Assembly (NCBI RefSeq): GCF_002571385.2
Contig: NW_019217807.1
Location: 1,110,840 to 1,174,839 of the forward strand
DNA length: 64,000 nucleotides
Source: Stylophora pistillata
Lineage: Eukaryota
Direction of reading: 5' to 3'
Part shown: piece after piece, positions 19,109 through 20,959 of the stretch
How the letters are laid out: the number at the start of each line of letters is the position of its first letter
Numbering within the stretch: the stretch's first letter is position 1
Position numbers and translations under genes: made by a program
Notes under the pieces: model-generated
Database searches by the model: none
What the model saw: the letters and a program-made list of their open reading frames with translations, nothing else
Told to the model about the DNA's origin: nothing

Positions 19109-20514
19109 ATGGCGGCTGCAAGCAATCGATTTGCAGAATTACCGCCCGAAGAAATACAGAGATTATTAGACAATGCTACAGCGAAGTCAACAGTGAAAGC
19201 CACAAAGTTTGGAATGAAAATATTTTACGGTGAGTTTTGGTTTTACCATAATTTGATACGTTGTACTACAAACGTTTGTCGAGCCGTCTCAAGTGACAAC
19301 ATTTATAATGTTTTGTTTCAGAATGGCAGGCGAGCCTTGGTGGCGCTAAATTCTCAAAACCGATTGAGGAAATGTCGAAAGAAGAGTTAAATGTCTGCTT
19401 GAGGTCCTTCTACACCTCAGCAAGAAAACAAGACGGCAATTATTACAAAGCGACTTCACTGAAATCCATTCGATCAGCAATTGACCGCCATCTTCGGTCG
19501 CCCCCACACAATAAGCCCTTCTCAGTCATCGCCGATGCGGCGTTTACAGAAGCAAACAAAGTCCTCGGCGCCTTCGTCAAAGACCTGAAATTATCTGGAA
19601 AAATAGAGGCTACTGTTCACAAGAAAGCTATGACAAGGGAACATGTTCAAAAGTTATTTAATAGCGGTCAACTCGGGCCAGCTGATAGCAAAAATCCGTC
19701 GCAGCTTCAGCGTACAGCATGGTTTTATGTGGGGCTGTATTTCGGTCGGCGGGGACGGGAAAAGCAACGTTTTCTGAAGCGAGACATGCTTGTTCATAGC
19801 GTGAGTGGTGAAGGAGTGGAATATTTTGAGCTTTACAGAAAAATGACGTATTCTTTACCATCTACCACCTCCGCCGACCCGGATGACGAAGTGGAATCTG
19901 ATACAAAGATGTTTGCGGTACCTGGATCCGAGAGATGTCCAGTAAAAACGCTGAAAAATTACCTAGCACGTCTGAATCCTGCCTCTGACGTGCTGTTTCA
20001 AAGGCCCAAAGATAGCCACAGCGTAAGGTTTAACCCCAAAGACACCGTCTGGTATTCGCCCTCACCTATCGGGAAGACATTTCTAAGCTGCTTCTTAAAA
20101 GAGATGAGCAAACGAGCTGGAATTGTGCCACATCTCACCAACCACTGTTTAAGAGCGACCTCAGTCGCTGTTTTATCGCACGGAAATTTGCACAGCCTGG
20201 GGCCTACTGTAGCATCGTCAACTATTGAAGTAGAGCAACGCAAATCTTCGATGCTGAGCAGTTTTGTAACTGCCGGCCAAGCTCCGCAGCTATGCCACAC
20301 AACCCCTGGCCGTGATGCTGATCAAAGAGTCATAGGCACAATGGTGGAAATTCAACAAGCACATCAACCCAGTGGAGAGATAGTTTTTCAGGTTCGTAAA
20401 TTTCCAGTTTTAATAAAGGACAATCAATCCGTTGCTGTGGCAAATGTTCCCGCCGAAAGCAATTTGGCGCAGACTGCGAGAACAACCCCCGCAATACTCC
20501 CTAAACCAGTTTAA
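19109..20514 (+). CDS. Crypton-type tyrosine-recombinase-derived protein (DUF3504; KCTD1/KIAA1958/QRICH1/ZMYM-related), about 437 aa, apparently catalytically dead
   Basis: ATG in GCCATGG context at 19109. Exon 19109-19229, phase-1 GTGAG..TTTCAG intron 19230-19321, exon 19322-20514. Motifs T.KATKFGMKIFYEW, LRSFYTSARKQDG.YYKATSLKSIRSAIDRHL, YFGRRGRE, CPVKTLKNYL, FQRP, WY...PIG and TNHCLRATS are typical of Crypton/DUF3504 YR domains. AATAAA at 20525-20530. Confidence 0.85.
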
Positions 20515-20959
20515 GTATATTTACAATAAATATGAAAATCAGATTTTCATATAAATAGCAAAAATTTTCTGGTAGTTCTGGAGGTTTTTCTGAACTTGTT
20601 ACTGTAATCTTTTTTTTTTTTTCTTTTAACCTTGAAACGATGGGAAGAGGTGAGGGTTTTCAGCAAATAGGTTTGCATGCACACTCTTTCACGTGGTAAT
20701 CTTAGCCATCAAAGGAAACCATTTGAGGTTTTTTAGAATGTATCACACAGGTAAATAGCCCTTTTCACACAAGCTGATTGGCTACTTCGGACGTGATTGG
20801 CAAGTACTATTCACTTCCGAGCAGCCGAAAAGACAGAATCGCCCACGAGTAGTTTGATTTCCGACTATTTTTCGGTCAATCGAGAGGAAAAAAAAACTAT
20901 TTTTGGTTTATGTGTGGTATACCCTAAAACAATTATTCATCTCAATGGAGGCGAATAAT

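Follow-up and report, generated by a model that had tools for sequence, protein, structure and literature searches.

A 64,000-nt stretch of the genome of the stony coral Stylophora pistillata (here called the window) carries, among GPCR genes, a gene that looks like a Crypton tyrosine recombinase with part of its active site gone. Its presence there raises the question of whether it is a transposon relic or has been taken over by the host and, if the latter, for what. The original prediction of an uninterrupted, spliced ORF of about 437 aa in a good start context stands: on the + strand, an ATG at 19109 (context GCCATGG) opens a two-exon reading frame that encodes 437 aa. Exon 1 (19109..19229, +; 40 codons and 1 base) encodes the N-terminal part of the core-binding domain and is 76-82% identical in the orthologue loci L031-L035. 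A GT..AG intron of 92 nt (19230..19321, +) separates it from exon 2 (19322..20514, +), which encodes the remaining core-binding domain, the dead catalytic domain (DUF3504) and the tail, and ends with TAA at 20512-20514 (+). Exactly these 92 nt are skipped in contigs from 8/8 sequencing runs examined, out of 19 with sequence across 8 studies, so that the predicted 19229/19322 junction is borne out; one of the eight runs is on record as RNA, five are guessed to be RNA and two are of unknown kind, and their contigs reveal neither transcript ends nor expression levels. The 5' edges of the contigs lie at 19086-19111 and cannot establish the start. Exon 2 and the stop are continuous without a joint in all eight, and thus no downstream exon restores the missing GH...Y motif, a candidate that the other reading frames also rule out.

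The AATAAA that had been proposed as the polyA signal exists, at 20525, and an AATAAA is present at the corresponding position in L031 and L033 and absent in L032, L034, L036 and L037. However, all eight contigs extend beyond it, four of them to 20969-21040 and the others to 20800, which is the edge of the stretch examined. At least part of the transcripts therefore end elsewhere, and the contigs contradict this AATAAA as the sole 3' end. The 3' UTR (20515..21040, +) goes past it and includes inserted repeats at 20730-20960 and 20964-21284. The sequence at 20730-21355 is an older dispersed repeat with 39 other matches at 70-82%, and a palindromic high-copy element is nested in it at 20964-21284, within the 3' UTR. 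The idea that this palindrome is the gene's own former terminus is without support, as it belongs to a dispersed family and has no BLAST match in the orthologue 3' regions. After the repeat, a single-copy contig at 21259-22328, of similar or higher depth, was present in 4/4 runs; it may be the remainder of a long 3' UTR or part of a convergent GPCR transcript. Five coding differences between the runs' contigs and the gene are listed, three synonymous and two replacements (G334A and R347L), and both replacements are located in the decayed region after HCLR.

The first catalytic Arg and the HxLR motif are retained, and the catalytic Lys, the GH motif and the C-terminal Tyr are absent, as the sequence had first been read. 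GRRGRE lies at residue 182 and HCLR at residue 315; conservation across 150 aligned homologues identifies the second R of GRRGRE, R184 (19750..19752, +), as catalytic Arg I, and HCLR (20143..20154, +) holds His I and Arg II. Neither a GH dipeptide nor TKN occurs in the 437-aa protein, whose last Tyr is Y285. Pfam found DUF3504 in exon 2 (E 5.8e-11) and no Phage_integrase match at E<=1; both families matched in 2/2 intact relatives checked.

The same losses recur in a group of homologues. Of 171 homologues found, 120 are listed, and 22 listed cluster representatives together with the S. pistillata protein make up a group that we defined by the missing Lys loop and a common C-terminal motif; we refer to these 23 rows as the dead group. 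Within it, Arg I is kept in 22 rows, Arg II in 18 (substituted in 5) and His I in 11 (substituted in 12), and Lys, the second His and the Tyr column are each kept in 0. Among the other homologues, of which 80 out of 98 have rows spanning the domain, Arg I is present in 75, Lys, His I, Arg II and the second His in 77 each, and Tyr in 76; 63 of the 80 hold the full R-K-H-R-H-Y set, three of whose six residues are missing in the S. pistillata protein. The Lys is gone with a shortened loop (19858..19890, +), and alignments and relaxed dN/dS mark 20182..20220 (+) as the site where a deletion of ~15-17 aa took out the second His and the nucleophile Tyr. In three complex-clade rows (P0013, P0021 and P0029) a Tyr survives one residue away from the catalytic position, together with a recognisable remnant of the deleted segment, whereas robust-clade proteins deleted ~15-17 residues, which gives the decay a stepwise look. 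One basic residue, K292 (20074..20076, +), was acquired by the group, with K/R in 22/23 dead rows versus 3% of the 63 fully intact rows; by analogy with Cre and Xer, the helix beginning there may be DNA-recognition helix J. A C-terminal helix (model residues 301-317; 20221..20271, +) is retained, and in alignments it corresponds to the helix that follows the Tyr of intact relatives; presumably it matches the helix through which tyrosine recombinase subunits dock. The pI is 9.3-9.7 in the orthologues and 8.2-9.2 in intact elements.

Named members of the dead group come from Oculina patagonica, Orbicella faveolata, two Montipora species and five Acropora species, and the orthologues measure 437-468 aa. 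A tree was built from 20 dead rows and a selection of 20 intact ones, without the Lys loop and all positions past exon-2 residue 272. In it the dead rows were monophyletic, on one side of a branch with 100/98 support, and nested among intact coral CryptonA sequences. Their robust and complex coral subclades received 100/99 each, and Montipora grouped with Acropora (97 in a 55-row quick tree). Judged by this tree, the host of the gene would be a coral of the robust clade. Identity to intact coral Crypton recombinases is 55-63%, and the sequence match to the vertebrate domesticate QRICH1 is weak (E 1.4e-4), so by these measures, in a tree that holds neither vertebrate DUF3504 proteins nor WegA1, the gene is much closer to coral Cryptons than to QRICH1. 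The suggestion of an independent domestication gains from this nesting, within the bounds of that tree; its "cnidarian-specific" part narrows to stony corals, as no sea-anemone or octocoral orthologue was seen among the named records. The core-binding domain resembles intact elements (60-65 of 83) roughly as closely as it does complex-clade orthologues (63 of 83), and conservation there consequently singles out no new host role. In several complex-clade assemblies (clusters P0013/P0029, P0017/P0020 and P0028) the dead gene seemingly lies on one contig in at least two copies, which suggests local duplication in some complex corals.

The position of the gene is shared across corals. As first noted, it lies inside a GPCR cluster, with 7tm_1 genes at 2753-3763 (+) and, as its upstream neighbour, 11721-12641 (+) on one side, and at 25373-23909 (-), its downstream neighbour, on the other. 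In the loci L031, L034 and L035, all from metagenomes (L034 and L035 yield an identical protein), an orthologue of the 11721 GPCR (68%) precedes exon 1 by 1.9-2.5 kb on the same strand, and L037 carries an exon of the downstream minus-strand GPCR. In Oculina the tag of the gene (ACROYT_G004450) falls between those of GPCR genes G004449 and G004455; in Orbicella the gene and a GPCR have consecutive accessions (XP_020612714/715); in Montipora capricornis the gene (XP_068746775) is near GPCR accessions 790-815, and in M. foliosa (XP_068708757) it occurs with GPCR accessions 763-766. Gene and GPCR share the same longest contig in Acropora cervicornis, and they are linked by identical longest-contig sizes in further assemblies (662,090; 1,823,789; 113,703; 2,223,853; 1,476,394; 986,251; 342,719; 703,699; 825,184). 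Much of this synteny is a matter of matching contig sizes and neighbouring accession numbers rather than DNA, and it places syntenic orthologues in both robust and complex corals, which separated hundreds of millions of years ago. The GPCR cluster itself is aminergic-like; Nematostella and Actinia have homologues of its minus-strand member at 60-66%, and in several corals homologues of the cluster genes adjoin one another.

Within its own genome (G000), the gene has many relatives and no near-identical dispersed copy. With 290 aa of exon 2 as query there were at least 137 matches, 135 out of 429 candidates having been scored; apart from the gene itself, the top three were 62, 57 and 58% identical; several of these best matches retain the GH and Tyr region, and many of the 137 have stops. 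The hairpin/tail region matched this locus only. With a nearest copy at 62%, the gene thus stands as a single copy amid a large and partly recent population of Cryptons, and a recent multicopy element can be set aside. Six Crypton matches in G000 are 89-96% alike in DNA, L005 apart, and the two ends of these six copies match a 306-bp non-autonomous element at 17303-17608. This element consists of the 5' ~90 bp and the 3' ~213 bp of the L002/L003 family, bears a long terminal palindrome, and defines the ends of that family. Of 1540 first-look candidates in G000, 40 were scored, and full-length copies of the element at 92-95% number at least 41. Copies of it lie on either side of L005 (G000:C6), a Crypton recombinase frame with the Lys, HxxR, GH and Tyr motifs.

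When aligned with orthologues and with intact elements, the 5' region of the gene, 18950..19108 (+), corresponds to the 5' end of Crypton elements, and it is likely a promoter inherited from the element. It contains ATTGG (the CCAAT-box strand) at 18993 and 19016 and a CArG/TATA-like box, CCTTATATGG, at 19040-19049. ATTGG was found in all 13 loci compared (6 dead-clade and 7 element loci), and CC(A/T)6GG at -65 to -73 in 6/6 dead-clade loci and at -67/-78 in 2/7 element loci; the perfect box together with ATTGG stands upstream of the start in this gene, in L031-L034 and L036, and in the intact L038 and L041. Another 8-bp motif, ~85 bp upstream, occurs in 6/6 dead-clade loci versus 0/7 intact elements and is a candidate self-regulatory site. 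The intron position is identical in L031-L034 and in 4/4 intact elements checked (L038, L039, L041 and L044); the intron was therefore inherited and is no sign of domestication. No parent-type 3' terminal palindrome was found around the gene or in 5/5 orthologue loci whose downstream sequence runs for 570-900 nt.

dN/dS, one of the tests originally proposed, was far below 1. NG86 dN/dS of exon 2 was 0.084-0.173 in 6/6 pairs among L031-L034 (dS 0.23-0.50); between the gene and L032 or L033 it was 0.097 and 0.075, with dS near saturation, and against L031 and L034 it was undefined. By region, close pairs gave 0.04-0.11 for the core-binding domain, 0.06-0.13 for the catalytic domain and 0.02-0.27 for the hairpin, and the decayed Tyr region was relaxed, at 0.13-0.37. 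In an intact Crypton pair (L038/L039; a partial comparison of one pair) dN was likewise far below dS. Selection for its own movement, however, cannot act on a dead protein that stays at one locus, and selection by the host is thus the simplest reading; we are highly confident that this is a host gene under selection.

The last 123 aa had been described as a Q/P/T-rich tail. Their composition (V14 A13 S12 T10 Q10 L9 P9) is not simply Q/P/T, and within them lies a clade-specific conserved module of ~38 aa (residues 375-412; 20323..20436, +) that both AlphaFold models predict as a long beta-hairpin, with strands E336-348 and E354-366 in model numbering. A hairpin HMM matched only dead-clade proteins among 415 (E<=4e-16; next 0.76), a partly circular result, as it was built from the dead-clade proteins themselves. 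Among the best 150 of 7437 representatives only P0010 and P0274 had the hairpin, and an atlas search with the hairpin in P0146 gave no usable match by features and structure matches below threshold. Hairpin dN between the gene and L031-L034 was 0.13, with dS near-saturated or saturated.

In the AlphaFold2 model built from 150 sequences (mean pLDDT 86.7, pTM 0.73) the two domains of the DNA clamp are still present, as is the helix that followed the lost Tyr; an earlier model from 19 sequences (pLDDT 43.7) was kept out of fold searches. The fold of the 150-sequence model matches Xer, Cre and QRICH1 (9hjt), the top match being QRICH1 in Zincore (E 8e-7; Z 13.3, 157 aligned, rmsd 4.3, 19% identity). 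A homodimer prediction for residues 295-397 without an alignment gave no usable answer (score 0.00). More distant fold matches, of separate origins, are two other recombinase-fold DNA binders, yeast Ndc10 and MrpR of phage SPbeta (Z 6-7, 9-12% identity); MrpR is not known to be catalytic. Ndc10 is CryptonF-derived and its catalytic site is gone, according to the accessible text of PMC3212892.

What, then, might the protein do? Given a host gene under selection, a DNA-binding regulator is a reasonably probable role. We lean, if only slightly, towards the more definite reading that this coral gene, derived from a CryptonA tyrosine recombinase, serves as a non-cutting DNA clamp regulating transcription or chromatin. 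On this proposal, a Crypton element would have landed in the GPCR cluster before the robust/complex split and kept its 5' end, promoter and intron while its 3' terminus was lost. The Lys loop and the second His would then have gone, and a piece of the variable tail would have turned into the conserved beta-hairpin. The core-binding and catalytic domains may still wrap DNA as in Cre or Xer, aided by the retained Arg I and the acquired basic residue, and the hairpin may recruit a partner. Target sites would probably resemble Crypton ends, which are scattered through the genome, and such sites are plentiful in G000, given the copies of the one non-autonomous element described above. The fullest form of the proposal is tentative, and we hold it with considerable doubt: at or around the beginning of Scleractinia, a Crypton recombinase would have given rise to a transcription regulator peculiar to stony corals, and this regulator would read genome-wide Crypton-end sequences as a ready-made regulatory network by means of a beta-hairpin made de novo from a transposon tail.

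A role in host defence, in which the protein would repress Crypton movement by sitting on Crypton ends or by entering recombinase tetramers as a dead, poison subunit, is unlikely. It would fit a core-binding domain barely altered from that of intact elements, the retention of the helix after the lost Tyr, the presence in G000 of related and recent elements (full-length copies 89-96% alike, non-autonomous ones 92-95%), and the apparent occurrence of two or more copies on one contig in some complex corals. However, the slow evolution of the protein (core-binding dN/dS 0.04-0.11) is unlike an arms race, related elements went on amplifying in its presence, and a conserved new hairpin is unnecessary for such a role. 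Somewhat less likely still is a Zincore-like scaffold, a dead fold that would work chiefly through protein contacts, as a coregulator for host transcription factors, and would itself do little sequence-specific binding to DNA. The top structural match does come from an entry entitled "Zincore (SEPHS1:QRICH1) binding to ZFP91 on DNA", Zincore being a zinc-finger coregulator complex in the accessible text of PMC13538652, and the clade did acquire a conserved hairpin. Common Crypton ancestry accounts for a QRICH1 match at 19% identity, though, and Arg I in 22/23 rows together with the acquired basic residue fits direct DNA contact. It is very improbable that the protein remains an active enzyme by altered chemistry, or that it forms a subunit to which an intact recombinase lends a Tyr in trans: Arg I, His I and Arg II persist in S. 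pistillata and three complex-clade rows have a nearby Tyr, but Lys and the second His are missing in 23/23 and His I and Arg II are themselves substituted in 12/23 and 5/23. Least probable, and largely refuted, is a decaying transposon relic without host function, transcribed from its own promoter, because open frames have been maintained at a fixed locus in four named genera at dN/dS of ~0.1 after catalysis was lost, for all that G000 holds at least 137 matches, many with stops, and that promoter and intron were inherited.

The favoured reading, a DNA-binding host regulator, has precedents. Crypton domestication itself is known and repeated: the accessible text of Kojima and Jurka 2011 (PMC3212892) gives four animal cases and a possible tunicate one, none cnidarian, and its supplementary files, so far as accessible, hold no match for Acropora, Nematostella, Hydra or coral. 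The coral gene resembles KCTD1, KIAA1958, QRICH1, ZMYM2-4 and WOC, as covered in that text, in being Crypton-derived, catalytically dead, conserved and expressed. It differs in an apparently separate origin inside coral Cryptons, in the survival of intact close relatives, and in standing alone, without the BTB domain or MYM zinc fingers of the much longer ZMYM/KCTD1-type proteins; in 4/4 full-length orthologues no other Pfam family was found, save a weak, sub-threshold QRICH1-domain match in three. Arg II, which the same accessible text reports lost in all vertebrate Crypton-derived proteins, is kept in 18/23 coral dead rows (PMC3212892). With animal CryptonA transposons the gene shares the recombinase, at 55-63% identity, the intron position and the 5' motifs; unlike them, it has lost Lys, second His and Tyr, is single-copy at a fixed locus where no 3' terminal palindrome was found, and carries a conserved C-terminal module, in contrast to animal Cryptons, described as without a C-terminal domain in the accessible part of PMC3212892.

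Other cnidarian DUF3504 genes have been described. Clytia WegA1 has an inferred host role, with a gastrulation phenotype from one morpholino only, in the accessible text of PMC4169000, and a Nematostella DUF3504 gene appears in an apical-organ table in that of PMC4300403. WegA1 is hydrozoan, with an ORF of at least 1749 nt and a C-terminal DUF3504 (Pfam E 2.2e-31), as described in the part of PMC4169000 available, whereas the coral protein has DUF3504 in mid-protein followed by a tail of ~130 aa; this architecture sets the two apart and orthology is unlikely. Corals and cnidarians are not mentioned in the accessible portion of PMC13465315, and no paper on this gene was found in the literature covered, outside which lay subscription journals, Repbase and figure-only supplements. 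From sequence, the gene appears to be an old, independent-looking CryptonA domestication in stony corals with a new conserved module, apparently unreported, outside bilaterians, and common to both main stony coral clades. In the vertebrate cases the parent elements are largely extinct, whereas corals still hold intact close relatives with their termini and non-autonomous copies, and living orthologues preserve intermediate steps in the decay of the active site, and what a domesticated DUF3504 domain binds thereby becomes directly testable. If the gene does encode a regulator, its intact parent family would permit a direct before-and-after comparison of domestication.

Elsewhere in the window, fragments at 17620-18017 and 26268-26870, the second with only an ALKBH8_N Pfam match, look to us like 3' ends of LINE-type retrotransposons. 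The intervals 35318-39097, 50760-52317 and 56272-61710 hold two EF-hand myosin regulatory light chain-like genes, an MFS transporter and a trypsin-family protease cluster.
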